DNA of 15,225 nucleotides. Origin: a virus. Of the stretch, positions 50 to 10,877 are shown in pieces. The notes under the pieces are model-generated. The model saw nothing but the letters and a program-made list of their open reading frames with translations. It was not told the DNA's origin and did no database searches. The stretch is taken from the UHGV virus genome UHGV-0070361; one strand, 5' to 3'. Position 1 is the stretch's first letter. Each line of letters opens with the position of its first letter. The position numbers and the translations under genes are program-made.

Positions 50-634
50 TTACGCACTAGCCTTTTTCTGGGTTACATTTAAATGATTAACCTTAGCTTC
101 ACATTCTTCATAAATCTCTCTTACAGTATCATCGGGTAACTCTTGTAGACTCAATGCTAGTGCTCTTTTGACTCCGCTCAATGAGTGCAGTTTTTGAATA
201 TCTGTATCAAGCAAAACAGTTAGTAGTTCGGCCCCTTTTCTGATCAATAAGTTGGACAAAATCTCTTGTTCAGATGAAGTTAGCGAGTCCCACGCCCTCA
301 TGATGATGGAATCACTATCATCAATTCTTTGTTTTTTTGTTCTTTTTGTTTGTTCAATTGGTTCTTTTTTCATGCTTGGCTCATCACCATAACCATGGAC
401 TAGCCACTCCATAGATACATGTTCTCTTTCTGCAATGTTCTGGAGATGGTGCTTTCTTGGTTGTGGTGGCGGCTGATTGTTTCTCCTTTTGTAGTAGTTC
501 TGCAATGTCTGAACGTTTATCCCCCATGCTCTAGCCGCCTCACTTCTCGATTTGTAACGCTCTGCAAGACGAAAAATCCGTTCGATCACTGGTTCTTTTC
601 CTTCGTCGAGAAAAGAACTGTTTTTCATGTTCAT
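50..634 (-). CDS. Lysogeny repressor, XRE/cI-type N-terminal HTH (functional analogue of Mu c); start chosen at internal ATG 632-634, the longer ORF extends to 763
   Basis: Divergent from ner across an AT-rich operator region. N-terminal part (SEAARAWGINVQTLQNYY ... IAEREHVSMEWLVHGYG) fits the five-helix XRE/cI HTH pattern. AAGGA lies about 10 nt upstream of the chosen ATG on the minus strand. The first 43 codons of the long ORF are read from AT-rich operator DNA and are probably not coding. Stop TAA at 52..50. Confidence 0.6.
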   Translation of the reverse strand: MNMKNSSFLDEGKEPVIERIFRLAERYKSRSEAARAWGINVQTLQNYYKRRNNQPPPQPRKHHLQNIAEREHVSMEWLVHGYGDEPSMKKEPIEQTKRTKKQRIDDSDSIIMRAWDSLTSSEQEILSNLLIRKGAELLTVLLDTDIQKLHSLSGVKRALALSLQELPDDTVREIYEECEAKVNHLNVTQKKASA

Positions 635-801
635 GCTCTCAGGTTCCTTTGTATTTATCTTATTGATATTAATAACAAAAACACCACAAAGAATAAAAAG
701 AACAAAATACCTTGATTTGGTTCTTTTGTTTGTTCTATTATTTACCCGTACAGATATCCGCACGAATATCCGCGCGGGTAACTTTTTAGAATAGAGGAAG
801 T
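635..801. promoter_or_regulatory. Divergent early control region between repressor and ner (operators plus early promoter); candidate rightward promoter TTGATT (712-717) - 18 nt - TATTAT (736-741)
   Basis: AT-rich 167-bp intergenic region between divergent genes. Near-consensus sigma70 hexamers positioned to start transcription about 50 nt upstream of ner. Contains the direct repeat ATATCCGC-acga-ATATCCGC (754-773) and a GTTCTTTTGTTTGTTC element (720-735) within the promoter spacer. Confidence 0.45.
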
Positions 802-1051: not shown

Positions 1052-3142
1052 ATGTATGTCATTGCAAAAGAACTGATTGGCGCGCCCGGAATGCCTGCTA
1101 CAACAAAAGGTATTCGCCAGGCATTACAACGTTACGTACAAGGGAAAAGCTGTTGTTCCCGTCGTCGCTCAGGCTCTAAAGCAACTGAATACAGCATCGA
1201 CTGTTTACCTGAAGTGACGCAGCAGGCATTACGTGAACGTTATGCCCTGCAACTGATGACGCAAAAAGCCGATGAATCACCGGCTCCGGTGGTGACAAAG
1301 GCCAGACGCTCATCTGACGTGGTTGATGCGGTGGAGGCATATCGCGGATCACCACAACTGATGGTCGAACGCCTCAATGCCCTGACTGAAAACCAGCGCC
1401 AGGTGGCTGATGCACGAATCGCGATCGTCAGCGAAGTTCTGAAAGTCGCGCAACAACCTGGTTTCAGCTGTGCGAAGGCTATCCGGTTTATCGTTGACAA
1501 CCTGGCACGTTCGCAACTGGACGAGCGCATTGTGGCAATGGTTGAGACGGCGAACGCCAAAAAGGGAAACAGCCGTGCGTTGAGTGAAATCACGCTGAAA
1601 CGCTGGATTGCAGCCTTTAACAAGGCGCAGAACGCCGCTGAACGCCTGCTTTTGCTGGCACCTGGTAAGCGCCAGGAAATAAAAGCCGAAGATATTAACT
1701 GGCTGCCCGAATTTCTGGCGCAGTATCGCCAGTCAAACGGCCGACCAATGACCGAGGCTTACGAGGATTTTGTCGCTGAATGGCAGCACCGGCACGCTGA
1801 TGAGCCTTATATGCTCGATATCATGCCGTCTTATGACACCATTCGCCGCGCAATGAAGAAACTGCCGGAAGTGGTGAAACAAAAAGGCCGGGTGACCGGC
1901 AGTGAATACCGCCAGCTTGAGGGATTCACGCGCCGCGACTGGTCCAGAATGCCGGTGAACTATGTCTGGATTGGTGACGGTCACGGCATGAAGCTGAAAT
2001 GCAGGCACCCGGTTCACGGGCGGCCATTTGCACCGGAAGTGACCTTTGTTATCGATGGCGGTACACGCTTTGTGGTGGGCTGGAGCCTTGACCTGGCTGA
2101 AAATGTTTTCGCCGTAGCCGGTGCTATACAGCACGGCATTCGCCATCACGGCAAACCGTTTCTGTATTACTCGGATAATGGCTCCGGGGAAACCGCCGAC
2201 ATCCTGGATAAGGAGATTGTGGGGATACTACCGCGACTGGGGATTAATCACCCGACCGGGATTGCCGGTAATCCGCAGGGACGGGGCATTATCGAACGGC
2301 TTAACCGCACATTACCGATGCGCATAGCCCGCAGATACCGCACCTATTTCGGGAAAGGTGCAGATCGCGAGACGTTACGCAAAACCAACCGCGATTTACG
2401 CTCGGCATTCACTGCCCTGCAACAGGGCAAGCGGCTGAACGCCCGGCAGCAGTCAGCGATGCGTGATTTACCGTCCTGGTCTGAACTGATTGATGCCATT
2501 CGTGATGGTGTTGAGTGGTACAACAACCGGCCGCACGATGAATTACCCATGAAGCCGAACGGGAAGCATTACAGCCCGGCGGAGTTCAGAAAAAAACGCC
2601 TGGCAGAAGAGGACACGGAAATTGAATGGCTGTCCGATGTTGAGCTGCGGGATATGTTCCGGCCGATGGTGAAACGCCCGGTAAGACGCTGCGAAATACG
2701 CTGGCTGAATAATATTTACTACGCGCCCGAGCTGCGTGATGAGCATGGTCGTAAGGTGCTTATCAGCTATGACATTCATGATGCCGAACGAATTACCGTG
2801 CGTCGCCTGGATGGCAGCGTGATTTGCGAGGCGGTATGGGACGGCAATAAACGCGAAGCCTTCCCGGTCAGCGCGGAATACTACAAACAGCAGCAGCGTC
2901 TTAAAGGCATGCGTAAACGCGCAGAGGAAAAAATTCGTGATGCCGAGGATGAGGTTATCAACGTGCTGGAGCACAAGCCGCAGGAGCCATGGCTGGAAAA
3001 CATATACCGCCCTATGGGTAATACGGTGGCCGTTCAGCAGCCAGCGATTGATGATGAACCTGACGAAGAATACGAGCGTAATTTCCAGCGGGGATTACAG
3101 CTGCTTGAAGCGAAATTAAAAGAAAATGACCCGCTGGCCTGA
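1052..3142 (+). CDS. A: Mu-type DDE transposase (MuA homologue)
   Basis: 696 aa. N-terminal Mu-type DNA-binding domain (MYVIAKELIGAPGMPATTKGIRQALQ ... EYSIDCLPEVTQQAL). Candidate catalytic D-D-E residues in VWIGDGHG, YYSDNGSGE and RGIIERLNRTL. Size and position (after ner, before B) match MuA. ATG is 1 nt after the ner stop. Confidence 0.9.
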   Translation: MYVIAKELIGAPGMPATTKGIRQALQRYVQGKSCCSRRRSGSKATEYSIDCLPEVTQQALRERYALQLMTQKADESPAPVVTKARRSSDVVDAVEAYRGSPQLMVERLNALTENQRQVADARIAIVSEVLKVAQQPGFSCAKAIRFIVDNLARSQLDERIVAMVETANAKKGNSRALSEITLKRWIAAFNKAQNAAERLLLLAPGKRQEIKAEDINWLPEFLAQYRQSNGRPMTEAYEDFVAEWQHRHADEPYMLDIMPSYDTIRRAMKKLPEVVKQKGRVTGSEYRQLEGFTRRDWSRMPVNYVWIGDGHGMKLKCRHPVHGRPFAPEVTFVIDGGTRFVVGWSLDLAENVFAVAGAIQHGIRHHGKPFLYYSDNGSGETADILDKEIVGILPRLGINHPTGIAGNPQGRGIIERLNRTLPMRIARRYRTYFGKGADRETLRKTNRDLRSAFTALQQGKRLNARQQSAMRDLPSWSELIDAIRDGVEWYNNRPHDELPMKPNGKHYSPAEFRKKRLAEEDTEIEWLSDVELRDMFRPMVKRPVRRCEIRWLNNIYYAPELRDEHGRKVLISYDIHDAERITVRRLDGSVICEAVWDGNKREAFPVSAEYYKQQQRLKGMRKRAEEKIRDAEDEVINVLEHKPQEPWLENIYRPMGNTVAVQQPAIDDEPDEEYERNFQRGLQLLEAKLKENDPLA

Positions 3143-3149
3143 AATAAAA

Positions 3150-3179
3150 AAATAACCCGAGGGGTAACTCAGGTTATTT
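3150..3179 (+). other. Stem-loop in the A-B intergenic region (AAATAACC ... GGTTATTT with inner GAG/CTC), possible attenuator or RNA processing site
   Basis: 8-bp inverted repeat with inner 3-bp extension starting 8 nt after the A stop codon. Followed by GGGTTT rather than a clean U-tract, so not a canonical intrinsic terminator. Confidence 0.2.
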
Positions 3180-3223
3180 GGGTTTCAGTCTCGGAGAATG
3201 CTGTCTCAAGCGAGGTAAATAAT

Positions 3224-4156
3224 ATGACTGATATTAACGATGTAATCAAGACCATAGATGAACTTATTGATGGCGGCGTACTGACGCAGTATGCCATCGC
3301 CAGGGAGGCGGGAATTTCCGACGGCACATTATCGGCTTTCCGCAAAGGGAAATATAAAGGAGACAATGATGCTATAACGGCGGCCATGCTTTCCTGGTAT
3401 GAAAACTGGAATAAACAAAGCGCACTGTCCGAGCTGCCACAGTTTGTGGAAACGCAGACAGTCCAGGAGCTGCGCGCACTGTTTCAGGCGGTTCGCCTGA
3501 TGGGCTGTATTAACGTCATAGTGGGCGTGCCGGGTGTGGGTAAAACGGCCACCGCCCGTAATTACTGCCAGGAGCAACCGAACACCTGGATGATCACCCT
3601 GTCACCCGCGCACTCCAGCGTCACGGAGTGTCTGCTGGAGCTGGCAGAGGAACTGGGGATTGATTACACCCGCGCGAACAAAGGGGCATTATCCCGCGCC
3701 ATCCGCCGTCGCCTGATGGGAAAGCGCGGACTGGTGATTGTTGATGAGGCTGATCATCTTGGTATTGACGGTCTGGAGCAACTCCGGGCAATCCAGGACG
3801 CCACAGGGGTCGGGATGGTGCTTATTGGTAACCCAAAGGGGCTGTTTAAAGGCGGACGCCGCGCCGTTGATGATTTATCTCGCCTGTTCAGCCGTCTTGC
3901 CCGTACAAAACAACTACGCAAGGCCAAAAAAGCGGATGTGCTGGCTATTGCCAGGGCATGGGGGATTAGTGGTGAGGCCGAGCTGGCTGTCATGCAGGCT
4001 ATCGCTGAAAAACCGGGGGCATTACGCGTTCTGACGCATACGCTTAACCAGGCGTGGATCACCGCCAGCGGTGAAGGTGCGGCACTGACAGAAAAACATA
4101 TTAATGCGGCCTTTAAAGAGGTTTATGCCAACCCTGAATTACTCTCACAGGTGTGA
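3224..4156 (+). CDS. B: Mu B-like AAA+ ATPase, transposition target DNA activator
   Basis: 310 aa (MuB is about 312 aa). Walker A GVPGVGKT and Walker B LVIVDEADHL. N-terminal HTH-like region. Immediately downstream of the transposase. GAGG lies 7 nt upstream of the ATG. Confidence 0.85.
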   Translation: MTDINDVIKTIDELIDGGVLTQYAIAREAGISDGTLSAFRKGKYKGDNDAITAAMLSWYENWNKQSALSELPQFVETQTVQELRALFQAVRLMGCINVIVGVPGVGKTATARNYCQEQPNTWMITLSPAHSSVTECLLELAEELGIDYTRANKGALSRAIRRRLMGKRGLVIVDEADHLGIDGLEQLRAIQDATGVGMVLIGNPKGLFKGGRRAVDDLSRLFSRLARTKQLRKAKKADVLAIARAWGISGEAELAVMQAIAEKPGALRVLTHTLNQAWITASGEGAALTEKHINAAFKEVYANPELLSQV

Positions 4157-4380
4157 TTATGATTGCATTTAATATTCCTGATATTTACGGACGCTTTCAC
4201 CTGGTGAATTTCGATAACGTCAAAGCAGTCTCCGTGTCTGACAGTGAAGAATGTGGCGATTTACTTTTTGAATTTAATGATCGCACCAGAATGGCAATAT
4301 CGGCAGGACTTGATCGTGAAGGTGCGAAAGAAGCTTACAGCAATATTTGTCGTTTTATCGGTGCAAAACGAATCAGCTAA
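4153..4380 (+). CDS. Hypothetical small protein, first gene after B (position of Mu kil); 75 aa
   Basis: ORF starts at GTG 4153 overlapping the B stop (GTGA), or at ATG 4159. Visibly more AT-rich than A and B. Same position and size as kil in Mu, but no sequence-level recognition is claimed. Confidence 0.45.
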   Translation: MIMIAFNIPDIYGRFHLVNFDNVKAVSVSDSEECGDLLFEFNDRTRMAISAGLDREGAKEAYSNICRFIGAKRIS

Positions 4381-4392
4381 ACGAGGTGTTAT

Positions 4393-5025
4393 ATGAATAC
4401 GCAGATACAGCAGGAAATCAATGTTCTCCACAGCTTTCGAGAGTTTAACGACAATGGCTGTGAGGTTCGTGATTATATCTATGAATTGATGATCGGTGAT
4501 GGTGTGTGTTTTCTGTATATAGACCTGTATCAGTGGTATGCAGACATGCAACTTGATTCCATCAGACGCCGTTTTAATCATGAATGCTTTGATGTGGATG
4601 TATGGGAAAGCCTGCGCTTTGGTTTTCTGATTATGGATGATTATCGCCAGGGGTGGCGACACGGTTACTCCATTCTTCGTGCAATCATGCGTGGCGAAAC
4701 CCGAAAAATTCCGGGGATGGGTAAAGTTAATCGAGGCTTCCTGTCAGAGCTGGCTGCATTGCGCATGAATCCATTACTGATACAACCGGAGTTCCCTATG
4801 AATTTGTTTGATTCACTGAATAACGCCCGCCGCCTGACTGAACTTGCTGGTGCGGTACTGGAGCGCAGCAAACGCTACCCGCAACGTTTTGCACTGAAAA
4901 CCACGCCGCCGGTAAACGAAGTTAAGGGAACCGGTGAAATTGAAATCACCGTTAAGACCAACGGCCTGCGCCGCCGTGTGAAGGCCACCCGTATAAGCGG
5001 ATGCACGGTTTACTGGGAAGTATGA
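4393..5025 (+). CDS. Hypothetical protein, 210 aa, semi-essential early region
   Basis: ATG 4393 with GAGG 6 nt upstream, 12 nt after the previous stop, co-oriented with the early operon. No recognisable motif. Confidence 0.5.
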   Translation: MNTQIQQEINVLHSFREFNDNGCEVRDYIYELMIGDGVCFLYIDLYQWYADMQLDSIRRRFNHECFDVDVWESLRFGFLIMDDYRQGWRHGYSILRAIMRGETRKIPGMGKVNRGFLSELAALRMNPLLIQPEFPMNLFDSLNNARRLTELAGAVLERSKRYPQRFALKTTPPVNEVKGTGEIEITVKTNGLRRRVKATRISGCTVYWEV

Positions 5026-5099
5026 AGTTGCTTCATGGTTCGGCTCTGTCATCAGGTCAGACGCCGGGTCAGTTATCCGAACAAAACGAGGACCAGAGG

Positions 5100-5372
5100 A
5101 TGAGTAAAGTCGTACGCATTATTTTCGAATACAAGGAGCACGTTATCCATAAAAACGCGGATGGAACAGTGCGCATGGGGGTAAGTCTGGACATACGTTC
5201 AACCGGGATAAAGCAGAAAGGTGATGGACCTGCCATGATTTTTGGGGTGGTTATGCTCGCGGAAAGCAGAGACTTTGCTGAACTTGTGGCAATGAAAGCC
5301 AGTGCGCTCATGAAAGATATGGACATGAGTTCCGGGGTTATTAAAGGTAATGAATTTAATCAGCAGGGGTAA
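5100..5372 (+). CDS. Hypothetical small protein, 90 aa, first of a diverged tandem pair (N-terminus MSKVVRIIFEY)
   Basis: Internal ATG 5100 of ORF 5001..5372, chosen because GAGG sits 8 nt upstream and the N-terminus matches the next gene. Confidence 0.45.
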   Translation: MSKVVRIIFEYKEHVIHKNADGTVRMGVSLDIRSTGIKQKGDGPAMIFGVVMLAESRDFAELVAMKASALMKDMDMSSGVIKGNEFNQQG

Positions 5373-5376
5373 TTCC

Positions 5377-5670
5377 ATGAGCAAAGTACGCGTTATTTTT
5401 GAATTTGACCACGTAATGCATGAAGTAAAGCCAGCCGGTAATGATAGTGAGGAAATCACGGAGGGGGTTACTGCCACGGTAAAAATCGAACGTGATACAG
5501 AGAACAGACCGGCAGGACCCTGTGATGTTTATGCACAAATTCTTAAATATCACAGCCCCACAATCATTCAGTTTCTGACAGATGAACTACAGGGTTCCAT
5601 GCAGGCCATGGGGGTAAGCAGCTCCGTTGAACGCCGTTCTGTTCAGAACGGACCAGATACATTGCAATAA
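5377..5670 (+). CDS. Hypothetical small protein, 97 aa, second of the tandem pair (N-terminus MSKVRVIFEF)
   Basis: Internal ATG 5377 of ORF 5350..5670, with AGGGG 6 nt upstream and 4 nt after the previous stop. Shares the N-terminal motif MSKV-R-IFE with the preceding gene, then diverges. Confidence 0.45.
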   Translation: MSKVRVIFEFDHVMHEVKPAGNDSEEITEGVTATVKIERDTENRPAGPCDVYAQILKYHSPTIIQFLTDELQGSMQAMGVSSSVERRSVQNGPDTLQ

Positions 5671-5681
5671 GGAAAAACAAA

Positions 5682-6212
5682 ATGGCAAAACGCGTTACAA
5701 AATTAAAGGCCGCAGCCGAGGCGGCACCGCAGACCCGTGAAGAGGTCAGCCGCGATATCCGACGCTTTGGGGATATGCAGCGTGAGGCACTACGCCTGGA
5801 AACGGCGATGAATGACGAAGTGGCAGAAATCACCGCCCGTTATACGCCGCAGATTGAAAACCTTAAAAAAGAAATCAAAGTGCTTTTTAAGGGGATTCAT
5901 GACTGGTGTAAAACCAACCGCAATGAGCTGACGAACGGCGGTGAAACCAAAACTGCCAATCTGACCACCGGAACGGTGTCATGGCGGCTGGGAAATCCAT
6001 CATGCAGCGTCAGTCGTGATGTGGAAGGTGTGATTGAAATGCTGCGTCGTATGGGGCTTGAGCGCTTCATCCGCACGAAAGAGGAAGTGAATAAGCAAGC
6101 TGTCCTGGCAGAGCCGGATGCGGTGAAAGGGATTGCGGGTATTAAGGTGAATAAAGGCGCTGAAAATTTTCATGTCGAGCCTTTTGAACAGGACGCCGGA
6201 CTGAATAAATAA
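5682..6212 (+). CDS. gam: Gam-like protein (Mu Gam family, DNA-end-binding host-nuclease inhibitor)
   Basis: 176 aa (Mu Gam about 174 aa). Collinear similarity to Mu Gam as I recall it: RLETAMNDEVAEITARY, ELTNGGETKTANLTTGTVSWR, LERFIRTKEEVNK, FHVEPFEQ. AAGGAAAAA RBS before the ATG. Confidence 0.85.
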   Translation: MAKRVTKLKAAAEAAPQTREEVSRDIRRFGDMQREALRLETAMNDEVAEITARYTPQIENLKKEIKVLFKGIHDWCKTNRNELTNGGETKTANLTTGTVSWRLGNPSCSVSRDVEGVIEMLRRMGLERFIRTKEEVNKQAVLAEPDAVKGIAGIKVNKGAENFHVEPFEQDAGLNK

Positions 6213-9159: not shown

Positions 9160-9665
9160 GAGGAAAACTGATATCTGCCATTCATGTGGCAAAACGCGAG
9201 CTTGCTCTGGATGATGAAACCTATACATCCGCACTGCTGGCAGCCACCGGTAAAGCCAGTTGCCGGGATATGTCACCGGATGAGTTATCCCGCGTACTGG
9301 ATGTTTTCAAAAAACGCGGTTTTAAAGTGCGTCAGAAACCGGTTAACCGGGCCTTAAAGCCGGGTACGGTGACCGCCAAAATTCGCGCCATCTGGAAAGT
9401 GATGCACCGGCAGGGCTTTATTTCTGATGGTGCGGAAACGGCCCTTAACCGCTGGGTGAAATCGCAGACGGCCGCGCAGAACGGCGGCGAAGGTGTGGCT
9501 AACTGGCAGTGGCTGGAGCAACACCCCGAGCTGGCCTCTGATGTGCTGGAGCGTCTCAAACGCTGGCACCGCCGCAAAATGCTGGCAGCCCTGGATATGT
9601 CGGAGCGTGCAGTGATGAGTTATGAGCGCGTTTGCAGGCTGTATGAAAAATCATTCCCCTGTTAA
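9156..9665 (+). CDS. gemA: GemA-like phage regulatory protein (Mu gp16 / DUF1018 family)
   Basis: 169 aa. N-terminus LISAIHVAKRELALDDETYTSALLAATGKASCRDMSPDELSRVLDVFKKRGF fits the conserved GemA-family pattern as I recall it (LIAKIH.AK..LGLDD..YR ... TGK.S ... GF). Lies upstream of the Mor-family gene as in Mu. ATGA overlap with the previous gene. Confidence 0.75.
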   Translation: MRGKLISAIHVAKRELALDDETYTSALLAATGKASCRDMSPDELSRVLDVFKKRGFKVRQKPVNRALKPGTVTAKIRAIWKVMHRQGFISDGAETALNRWVKSQTAAQNGGEGVANWQWLEQHPELASDVLERLKRWHRRKMLAALDMSERAVMSYERVCRLYEKSFPC

Positions 9666-9668
9666 CCC

Positions 9669-9699
9669 AAATCCCGCCACAGTGCGGGATTTTATTTTT
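9669..9699 (+). terminator. Rho-independent terminator hairpin AAATCCCGC-cacagt-GCGGGATTT followed by TATTTTT; left copy of a duplicated pair
   Basis: Perfect 9-bp stem, 6-nt loop and T-run, starting 4 nt after the gemA stop. The stop codon of the antisense gene 9692..10114 lies inside its T-tail. Confidence 0.75.
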
Positions 9700-10114
9700 C
9701 CTGAATTTCCGTTTCTGACGGGATTATGCAACCAATTGTTTCATCTGGTTTTTCATATAACGCTATCAATTTAGCCAGCTCATCAGCATCAAAGTTATAA
9801 AATTCAGTTTGTTTAGTTGTCTCCTGATAGTGTTCCCAGCTACGAACAATGACGCTACGAATAACTTTCTTTTCCGGGGGTGTTTGTTTTGTTGGTTTAC
9901 GATGTAACCACGTCTGAAACATACTGGCTAATGCCTGCCAGAACCCATCGCATGAAGCTGCGGCCAGAACGATCAATACAATATCGCTTCCGGCAGCACT
10001 AAGTGTTGCTGCTTCTATATTATGATTTGTAAGTTTATACTCTTTCGCCAGATCATTGAGTTCATGGGCCAGTTCTGGTGGGCACGATAAAAGCAAAGAT
10101 GGAGGTTGTTTCAT
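9692..10114 (-). CDS. Hypothetical protein, 140 aa, antisense to the phage early operon, inside the hairpin-bracketed AT-rich insertion
   Basis: Long ORF in AT-rich DNA. Over the stretch I tabulated, codon first positions are G/A-rich and third positions AT-rich, consistent with real coding. AGGAAG-type RBS 6-9 nt upstream on the minus strand. No recognisable family by eye. Confidence 0.5.
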   Translation of the reverse strand: MKQPPSLLLSCPPELAHELNDLAKEYKLTNHNIEAATLSAAGSDIVLIVLAAASCDGFWQALASMFQTWLHRKPTKQTPPEKKVIRSVIVRSWEHYQETTKQTEFYNFDADELAKLIALYEKPDETIGCIIPSETEIQEK

Positions 10115-10349
10115 GGATATCTTCCTTTATTCCGGTGGAACGCTGTCAGGCAGACTGAAATTATTTGTTTTTGCACTGGAGCAAGCCTGGTGTGCTTTAA
10201 GAGTTGGGATAATTGGTTTTCATGTTGATGAAACAACAATAACCCGCAATATGCACAAGCTTTTTGATAAGAAAAACTCCTTCAGGGTTTGTATTTTTAA
10301 AAATAAAAACGATCTTTATCATATAGTTACACCGGAAAATGATCAATAA
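10113..10349 (+). CDS. Possible small protein, 78 aa, inside the insertion (alternative or additional to the antisense gene)
   Basis: Internal ATG 10113 of ORF 10056..10349 with a strong GGAGG 7 nt upstream; stop about 40 nt before the right-hand terminator hairpin. Its start overlaps the antisense gene's start by 2 nt (CATG). Could instead be the promoter/leader region of the antisense gene. Confidence 0.3.
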   Translation: MDIFLYSGGTLSGRLKLFVFALEQAWCALRVGIIGFHVDETTITRNMHKLFDKKNSFRVCIFKNKNDLYHIVTPENDQ

Positions 10350-10388
10350 ATACACAGCTCATTTCGGGTTATGATTTACAGCGCCTCT

Positions 10389-10419
10389 AAATCCCGCCAC
10401 AGCGCGGGATTTTTATTTT
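10389..10419 (+). terminator. Rho-independent terminator hairpin AAATCCCGC-cacagc-GCGGGATTT followed by TTATTTT; right copy of the duplicated pair
   Basis: Near-identical to 9669..9699 (one loop substitution, slightly different T-tail). Lies 35 nt upstream of the Mor-family gene. Confidence 0.75.
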
Positions 10420-10454
10420 AAACTTGCCCTGTGTAATGATGACCGGAGGCGGGT

Positions 10455-10877
10455 ATGGCTGAAACACAGATGAGCATGTTTGGTGACAGCGAACAGCTGC
10501 ACGCGCTGATTGACCGTCTGGATGACATTCCTGATGATGAGCTGAAAAAGAACTGGCCCGGCACGCTGCGGGACCTGGTTGATGTGATCAGTGCTGAACT
10601 GCACCGTCAGGGGATTGAACCTGCTCAGGCAGGAATGCTTGCCCGTAAAGTTGCGGCCGCACAGGCCGGGTACATGGGCGGGCGTGGTTATTATCTCCCG
10701 GTCGGTGAATCCCTTTTCACCGAACTGCGCAATAATGAGATTTTTTCCCGCTGGAGCCAGGGCGAAAAAATTGAAACCCTGCGCCGCCATTACAGGATGT
10801 CAGAAACCCAGATTTATACCGTCATACGCGAACAGCGCCGTCTGCATCTGGCAAGAACGCAACCGCCACTTTTCTGA
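10455..10877 (+). CDS. mor: Mor/C-family transcriptional activator (middle/late gene activator of Mu-like phages)
   Basis: 140 aa. C-terminal two-thirds align by eye with Mu Mor as I recall it (GYMGGRGYYLPVGESL ... IETLRRHYRMSETQIYTVIREQRRL ... QPPLF against GGGQVYIPRGQAL ... TTRYGVTFNTVYKAIRRMRRL ... QPSLL). GGAGG 5 nt upstream. Only one family member is present in the window. Confidence 0.8.
   Translation: MAETQMSMFGDSEQLHALIDRLDDIPDDELKKNWPGTLRDLVDVISAELHRQGIEPAQAGMLARKVAAAQAGYMGGRGYYLPVGESLFTELRNNEIFSRWSQGEKIETLRRHYRMSETQIYTVIREQRRLHLARTQPPLF

Follow-up and report, generated by a model that had tools for sequence, protein, structure and literature searches.

The window analyzed here, the whole 15,225-nt stretch of the virus genome UHGV-0070361, is the left part of a Mu-like Escherichia coli prophage, and this report concerns the block of small early genes that it carries between B and gam (4153-5670). 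The block is best explained as a promoter-proximal accessory segment of the early operon that shares its transcript with A and B. Its last two open reading frames (ORFs), ORF3 and ORF4, are by their sequences full-length paralogues and old tandem duplicates, and their family is probably homologous to E6 of phage Mu, the protein characterized as Gnarl2. In the explanation that we favor, at an even balance of probability, both would be Gnarl2-like proteins that perturb the O-antigen/lipopolysaccharide (LPS) pathway of the host. Additionally, the block contains a natural in-frame fusion of an E7-like gene with a Mu-type kil gene as well as the deletion scar of a fifth gene. Its parts are the following (sizes in amino acids, aa; SD, Shine-Dalgarno motif):

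4159..4380, plus strand: ORF1, 73 aa, acidic (pI 5.2), function unassigned; full-length match to phrog_3375 (E = 1.8e-40)
4393..4797, plus strand: E7-like part of the 210-aa ORF2, a homologue of Mu gp8/E7 that is without its own stop and reads into kil
4794..4795, plus strand: site of a 1-nt deletion, GAGTTC[A]CCTATG to GAGTTCCCTATG, by which E7 is brought in frame with kil
4798..5025, plus strand: kil, 75 aa, basic (pI 10.35), of the Mu type, with its own SD (GGAG, 4788-4791) and ATG retained
5035..5103, plus strand: deletion scar of a 93-aa gene (phrog_1518, labelled "host nuclease inhibitor"), of which the last 22 codons and the stop remain
5100..5372, plus strand: ORF3, 90 aa, pI 8.0, the more diverged copy; phrog_4107 (E = 1e-60)
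5377..5670, plus strand: ORF4, 97 aa, acidic (pI 4.9), the copy nearer to the single-copy relatives of Salmonella and Serratia; phrog_2230 (E = 3.6e-35)

The N-termini of the two proteins are much alike (MSKVVRIIFEY in ORF3 and MSKVRVIFEF in ORF4), which a first-pass annotation of the window had taken as the trace of an old tandem duplication followed by diversification, with similarity over about 40 nt of the 5' ends and complete divergence thereafter. The duplication is upheld, and so is the similarity of the 5' DNA, where 25 of 31 nt are identical with one 3-nt gap (blastn, E = 2e-4) and beyond which no similarity is seen at the DNA level; the complete divergence is not, since pairwise alignment of the proteins revealed homology over 86 aa, and not at the N-terminus alone, with 26% identity (BLASTP, E = 3e-6), and the profiles of the two families align with each other at E = 1.7e-5 (hhalign). 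A joint alignment with the Salmonella and Serratia members is coherent and shows an N-terminal strand V-I-F-x-F-E, a G in the hairpin, G-P before the helix, the motifs Y-A-x-I-L and S/A-P-x-I-I, and a G after the helix. The AlphaFold2 models of the two proteins have the same mean predicted local distance difference test score (76.9 each), with strands at 6-18 and 24-35, a helix at 44-73 and a strand at 78-80 in ORF3, and strands at 3-21 and 24-40 and helices at 48-77 in ORF4. In both models a β-hairpin precedes a long helix, which a short strand follows, and the offset of these predicted elements agrees with the sequence alignment; both were however built from one common mixed alignment, and their likeness is not independent evidence. 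As a separate observation, an exact 12-mer, CATGGGGGTAAG, is found in ORF3 (5174-5185) as well as in ORF4 (5607-5618) and codes each time for M-G-V-S; since its two copies do not coincide in the protein alignment, it was set aside as a homology signal, being probably due to chance.

Relatives of the pair are few: an exhaustive hidden Markov model (HMM) search of 1.84 billion representatives found about 20 proteins, among them proteins of 90-98 aa from Salmonella enterica and Serratia, all of them named "hypothetical". The family is restricted to Mu-like prophages of Enterobacterales. The ORF3-ORF4 pair was found in nearly all of the 49 related loci that were mapped (designated here by L numbers), ORF3 being present in about 45 of them; it is missing in L013, and ORF4 has been lost to an IS66 element in L003. 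A Salmonella prophage with an identical layout (L050) harbors a single 97-aa member (P0071) with 37% identity to ORF4 (E = 2e-13) and 29% to ORF3, and Mu has one candidate member only, E6. A single copy in both Salmonella prophages and Mu indicates that the gene was duplicated in the E. coli clade specifically. Two further observations concern the surroundings of these genes in other prophages. In L003 (E. coli 23CRST047, 3035-4453) the IS66-family element ISEc22 stands right after the ORF3 homologue, in place of both ORF4 and gam, and in L050 (Salmonella enterica Mu-like prophage, 5303-5941) the single ORF4-like gene is followed immediately by one for a DUF3164 protein, at the place taken by Gam in the E. 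coli clade.

Gnarl2 (Silas et al., Nat Commun 2025, PMC12373910) is the product of Mu E6, also Mup07 or orf63 (NP_050611.1; NC_000929, 4784..5047; PMC12373910 supplement). Its expression in the E. coli strains ECOR1 and ECOR22 shifted the O-antigen bands downward and raised T5 infection by 10^5-6-fold, and the protein is regarded by its authors as too small for an enzyme (PMC12373910; bioRxiv 10.1101/2023.04.06.535777). Gnarl2 is small (87 aa), non-enzymatic and encoded between B and gam in the early semi-essential (SE) region of Mu; ORF3 and ORF4 are of the same size, have no Pfam, NCBIfam or PDB match and lie between kil and gam, in a slot equivalent to that of E6. The start of Mu E6 (MAKVIIEIKN) has the form M-x-K-V-I-I-E, close to the starts of ORF3 and ORF4. 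Several profile comparisons point to the same relationship. Among 38,880 PHROGs, the second-best family for Mu E6 is the ORF4 family phrog_2230 (hmmscan, E = 0.009, 78 of 87 residues). The ORF3/ORF4 family matched Mu E6 weakly (hhalign, E = 0.003, probability 11%), and a broader E6 profile, made from 15 IMG/VR and phage sequences, matched the ORF3/ORF4 profile at E = 1.7e-4 with a probability of 49% over 71 colinear columns, whereas four control families from the locus gave E = 0.04-0.5 over 5-24 columns. Conversely, when the 138 six-frame ORFs of the Mu early region were searched with the family HMM, E6 alone stood out (E = 0.034), the runner-up having E = 2.9. The homology of the ORF3/ORF4 family to Mu E6 is rated as probable, though short of proof. 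On the other hand, the two systems differ in that identity is only about 17%, Mu has one copy where two diverged copies are found here, and the gene order kil-E5-E6-E7-E8-gam of Mu contrasts with ORF1-E7-kil-(scar)-ORF3-ORF4-gam in the window; the O-antigen phenotype is known for Mu E6 only.

The ratio of nonsynonymous to synonymous substitution rates (dN/dS, as a ratio of means) was 0.12 for B, 0.10 for Gam, 0.10 for Kil, 0.20 for ORF1, 0.35 for ORF4, 0.43 for E7 and 0.49 for ORF3, the median for the last being 0.30. All these genes are under purifying selection, and ORF3, ORF4 and E7 evolve 3-5 times faster than B, Gam and Kil. The duplicated pair thus changes more quickly than the core genes around it (0.35-0.49 versus about 0.10 for B, Gam and Kil). 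Variation in ORF3 and ORF4 is concentrated in the hairpin and in the low-confidence C-terminal tail, with ratios of nonsynonymous to synonymous polymorphism (pN/pS) of 0.8-1.05, while the N-terminal strand and the helix are conserved. Each gene exists in two allele classes, whose identity to the window copy is at least 90% in one and 55-60% in the other for ORF4, and about 97% and about 81% for ORF3. All four combinations of these classes occur, and ORF4-type genes also occur alone, which rules out an obligate co-evolution of the two proteins. ORF3 and ORF4 are therefore best described as real, constrained and quickly evolving genes, a pattern that fits an interaction with the host, with no proof of it. 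Another characteristic concerns the first 12 codons of ORF4 (5377-5412), in which synonymous polymorphism (pS) among alleles is 0.10, about threefold below the 0.22-0.33 of the rest of the gene; the two ORF4 allele classes have this 5' end in common, and its low synonymous diversity could reflect a common recombination boundary or a constraint on the mRNA.

ORF2, which had been counted among four genes with no assignable motif, is a natural in-frame fusion of an E7-like gene with a Mu-type kil, and that part of the first-pass annotation has to be withdrawn. Residues 136-210 of the 210-aa ORF, its C-terminal 75 aa, match phrog_2679 "Kil" (E = 2e-39) and also phrog_2743 (E = 8.5e-4), and show 36% identity to the C-terminal half of Mu Kil (BLASTP, E = 6.5e-6). 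PF26843 gave no match to kil in our Pfam scan; a Salmonella orthologue with 69% identity has a recorded PF26843 Kil_protein match. Residues 1-76 share 33% identity over 76 aa with Mu_8 (gp8/E7) (BLASTP, E = 2e-7), and the E7-like part matches phrog_3690 (E = 2.8e-4). E7 is a separate gene of 139-140 aa in L002, L003, L005 and L006, and in OkiPb01696, 23CRST047, M18 and a Mu embedded in an Stx phage, E7 (139-140 aa) and kil (76 aa) are separate and overlap by 14 nt. DNA alignment with three E. coli prophages showed that one A is missing between 4794 and 4795, which brings E7 into the kil frame 3 nt ahead of the kil ATG; in the window, the final 5 codons and the stop of E7 are gone, and an independent E7 ORF of about 139 aa with its own stop is not found here. 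The fusion allele is present in at least 5 assemblies, including KY203, CP55_Sichuan and two IMG/VR contigs, whose sequences differ elsewhere (CP55_Sichuan shares 84% identity with the window in B and 59% in ORF4), and three exact unfused junctions were found in IMG/VR. Since the deletion site is not a homopolymer run, the fusion is taken as a real allele spread by recombination, not a sequencing error. In KY203, PGAP annotates exactly the 4798-5025 ORF as a separate coding sequence, and the SD and ATG that kil has kept, with GGAG 6 nt ahead of the ATG, probably still allow free Kil to be produced alongside the 210-aa E7-Kil protein.

Killing and rounding of host cells are phenotypes documented solely for Mu kil, whose expression makes E. 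coli cells spherical (PMC3961180, citing Waggoner 1989), and Mu kil has no relationship to lambda Kil or Rac KilR beyond the common name (PMC3961180), so the PHROG label "septation inhibition" is a loose one and not to be taken literally. The kil of the window resembles Mu Kil (Mup05) as a small basic protein of about 75 aa encoded in the early operon downstream of B, in which the C-terminal half R-x-V-x-A-x-R-x-x-G-C-x-V/I-x-W is kept. It differs from it in that it is not the first gene after B, that its N-terminal half is unrelated to that of Mu Kil, and that it doubles as the C-terminal domain of the 210-aa read-through product. Similarly, the gene for Mu gp8/E7 (139 aa, phrog_3690, function unassigned) equals in length the separate gene of the relatives (139 aa), but it follows E6 in Mu whereas it precedes kil here.

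The 74-nt gap before ORF3 (5026-5099) is the deletion scar of a fifth gene. Residues 72-93 of the 93-aa protein encoded in L007 map to 5035-5100 with 77% identity (tblastn), and the stop of this phrog_1518 gene overlaps the start of ORF3 (ATGA). The full gene is found in 27 related loci, and no intact copy is present in the window. Across 45 loci, 26 carry only the full phrog_1518 gene, 14 only E7, 4 neither and 1 both; the two genes are therefore near mutually exclusive and behave like alternative cassettes.

In the favored explanation, induction or infection would lead to an early transcript that yields ORF1, E7-Kil and/or Kil, ORF3, ORF4 and Gam. Kil, if it acts as in Mu, would be made early and be toxic, arresting and rounding the cell, and Gam would protect DNA ends. 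ORF3 and ORF4 would be small, non-enzymatic and probably dimeric β-hairpin/helix proteins that bind host factors of the envelope/O-antigen pathway and remodel the cell surface, as reported for Gnarl2; the altered surface receptors could then bring about superinfection exclusion or reduce the re-adsorption of progeny. Duplication and allele classes may broaden or shift target specificity in a host species that has more than 170 O-antigen types. A bolder form of this proposal takes ORF3 and ORF4 as two specificity variants of a Gnarl2-like inhibitor, perhaps a heterodimer, each of which would bind a different hypervariable component of O-antigen/LPS biosynthesis, with allele classes that track the O-antigen type of the host; we consider it improbable. 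Apart from this, and with as little probability, the recurrence of the E7-Kil fusion could mean a functional two-domain toxin rather than an accident.

Several results weigh against the proposed role in the O-antigen/LPS pathway. In a shuffle test with 2000 shuffles, 18 equalled or exceeded the score of the real sequence (p about 0.009), the probabilities from hhalign reach only 11-49%, which leaves the link to Gnarl2 weak, and neither ORF3 alone nor ORF4 alone matched the Mu E6 profile. True homology would, at 17% identity, still not guarantee a conserved function, and the direct target of Gnarl2 is itself unknown (PMC12373910). The common alignment behind the two structural models has to be kept in mind as well, and Foldseek searches with both models against PDB and with the ORF4 model against BFVD gave no significant structural relative; the weak recurrent matches, to a designed C2 dimer and to OsmC/Ohr dimers, are a hint of dimerization and no more. 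As for the fusion, it could inactivate E7 or change the dosage of Kil instead of giving a useful protein.

ORF3 and ORF4 might also be host-takeover or anti-defense proteins with targets unrelated to O-antigen, for example an intracellular defense system or a DNA-binding host protein, in which case the resemblance to Gnarl2 would be irrelevant to their function or not homology at all. Such a role would suit a variable accessory slot adjoining kil and gam, the acidity of ORF4, the raised dN/dS and reassorting allele classes, and the finding of no enzymatic or DNA-binding motif in either protein, and the weakness of the E6 link counts in its favor too; yet nothing points positively to any specific defense system, PADLOC and solved structures gave no match, and the sole experimentally characterized relative, though distant, is Gnarl2, so that we judge it rather unlikely while taking it seriously. 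Improbable by our estimate is a service to the phage's own transposition-replication or regulation instead of an action on the host surface, in which ORF3 and ORF4 could answer to functions of the Mu semi-essential region that are defined genetically but assigned to no gene, such as arm or cim. Their position immediately downstream of A, B and kil in the early operon, the retention of the pair in nearly all E. coli relatives and the fact that most of the 14 Mu SE ORFs are without an assigned function (PMC3325207) are compatible with it, but the 3-5 times faster evolution of ORF3 and ORF4 relative to B and Gam is not what it would lead one to expect, the absence of ORF3 from L013 and from Salmonella prophages together with the loss of ORF4 in L003 is typical of dispensable accessory genes, and no nucleic-acid-binding signature was found in ORF3 or ORF4.

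Two further explanations are scarcely credible. According to one, which the first-pass annotation had itself named as a possible undoing of its proposal, the common N-terminus would be a nucleotide-level element, that is, a translation-initiation or coupling signal or a recent gene conversion, and the two ORFs would otherwise be unrelated. It could draw on the restriction of DNA similarity to the first 31 nt and on the low synonymous diversity at the 5' end of ORF4 alleles, but it is largely refuted: the proteins align end to end and have their predicted topology in common, the strand motif V-I-F-x-F-E is kept at the protein level in Salmonella and Serratia members whose flanking residues and codons differ, and 3 of the 7 identical degenerate codons have different third bases in the two genes (AGT/AGC, GTC/GTA and TTC/TTT), which is near saturation. 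The other, of equally slight probability, regards the ORFs as decaying, non-functional remnants of a defective prophage. The frameshift-type fusion and the deletion scar at the locus would agree with decay; all ORFs are nevertheless intact and kept in about 45 loci with dN/dS of 0.1-0.5, ribosome-binding sites and overlapping start/stop junctions are retained, and the fusion allele persists across recombinant backgrounds.

ORF1, for which a size of 75 aa had been given, exists as an ORF, and its start is most likely the ATG at 4159 (73 aa), following the annotation in relatives, 3 nt past the stop codon of B. It was found in about 41 related loci and has an orthologue with 49% identity at the equivalent position of a Salmonella Mu-like prophage; Mu, by contrast, has no counterpart of it. 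Searches of Pfam, NCBIfam, PADLOC and PDB with ORF1 gave no match. A kinship of ORF1 with ORF4 was considered because of a common "LLFEFND" string and an 11-mer, and was rejected as hhalign found no relation (E = 0.043 over 16 columns).

The remaining features of the window are typical of a Mu-like prophage. The genes surrounding the block are the following:

50-763, minus strand: repressor
within the window: ner
1052-3142: transposase A
3224-4156: B
5682..6212, plus strand: gam, host-nuclease inhibitor, which forms the downstream edge of the block (Pfam PF07352, E = 6e-39; 55% identical to Mu Gam)
further genes of the window: gp10/DUF5420, gp11, GemA, Mor/C-type activator, endolysin, terminase

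The placement of the four ORFs in the semi-essential early region of a Mu-like prophage was confirmed, as were their coordinates on the plus strand (4153/4159-4380, 4393-5025, 5100-5372 and 5377-5670), the Shine-Dalgarno-like motifs GAGG, GGAG or AGGGG 6-8 nt 5' of every start, and a GC content (0.40-0.48) below that of A and B (0.54). Homology searches with all four ORFs assigned them to phrog_3375, phrog_2679/phrog_3690, phrog_4107 and phrog_2230, respectively, and ORF maps of the 49 related loci showed that they are kept in about 50 related Mu-like prophages, in the general order B, ORF1, (E7), kil, (phrog_1518), ORF3, ORF4, gam; the window follows it with ORF1, E7-like, kil, the phrog_1518 scar, ORF3, ORF4 and gam. 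The ORFs of the block gave no match in Pfam, NCBIfam or PADLOC scans, and PDB sequence searches with ORF1, ORF2 and the ORF3/ORF4 family profile were equally negative. A profile search of genome contigs with the Mu E6 alignment yielded no relatives either. Promoter and terminator scans of the region gave matches at no more than chance level and Rfam gave none, which fits one continuous early transcript; the minus-strand ORFs of the region (4261-4662, 5199-5477 and others) belong to no family and were taken as non-coding. For the stretch 4100-5700, a prophage of E. coli JNEC-KY203 shows 98.6% identity. Among 5426 complete E. coli genomes, 232 gave matches to it, and in 10 of the 232 no less than 80% of the block is present.

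The locus is thus an ordinary, typical Mu-like accessory block, whose families, except for Kil, are already catalogued as unknowns. As in the accessory-gene slots of temperate phages, optional cassettes (E7 and the phrog_1518 gene), reassorting allele classes and raised dN/dS are found here; unlike sporadic morons, however, ORF1, kil and the ORF3-ORF4 pair are near-constant members. In Mu, viability was regained after MuBam infection when the SE region was deleted (PMC3325207). Two side observations come from elsewhere in the window. A 140-aa ORF without a PHROG family on the minus strand (9692-10114) lies in a low-GC island (0.38-0.44; 9600-10450) that separates gemA from the Mor/C-type activator, and it has the appearance of a moron insertion. 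A single Mor/C-family activator was seen in the window (10455-10877), directly 5' of the endolysin, whereas Mu has mor after gemA and C before lys.

In Mu-like phages, most of the semi-essential region still has no assigned function, and Gnarl2 (Mu E6) is among the few genes there with a phenotype. The annotation of the region is corrected in two respects, kil being present and the 210-aa ORF fused. New are the fused allele of kil, the scar left by the deleted gene, and a probable kinship between Gnarl2 and the duplicated pair. A widespread clade of E. coli prophages has two diverged probable relatives of Gnarl2, each with distinct allele classes, and these classes supply naturally occurring variants with which the host target and the residues behind specificity could be mapped. 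Should the two proteins prove to be specificity variants of one inhibitor, Mu-like prophages would carry a small, modular and non-enzymatic kit for seroconversion or superinfection exclusion.

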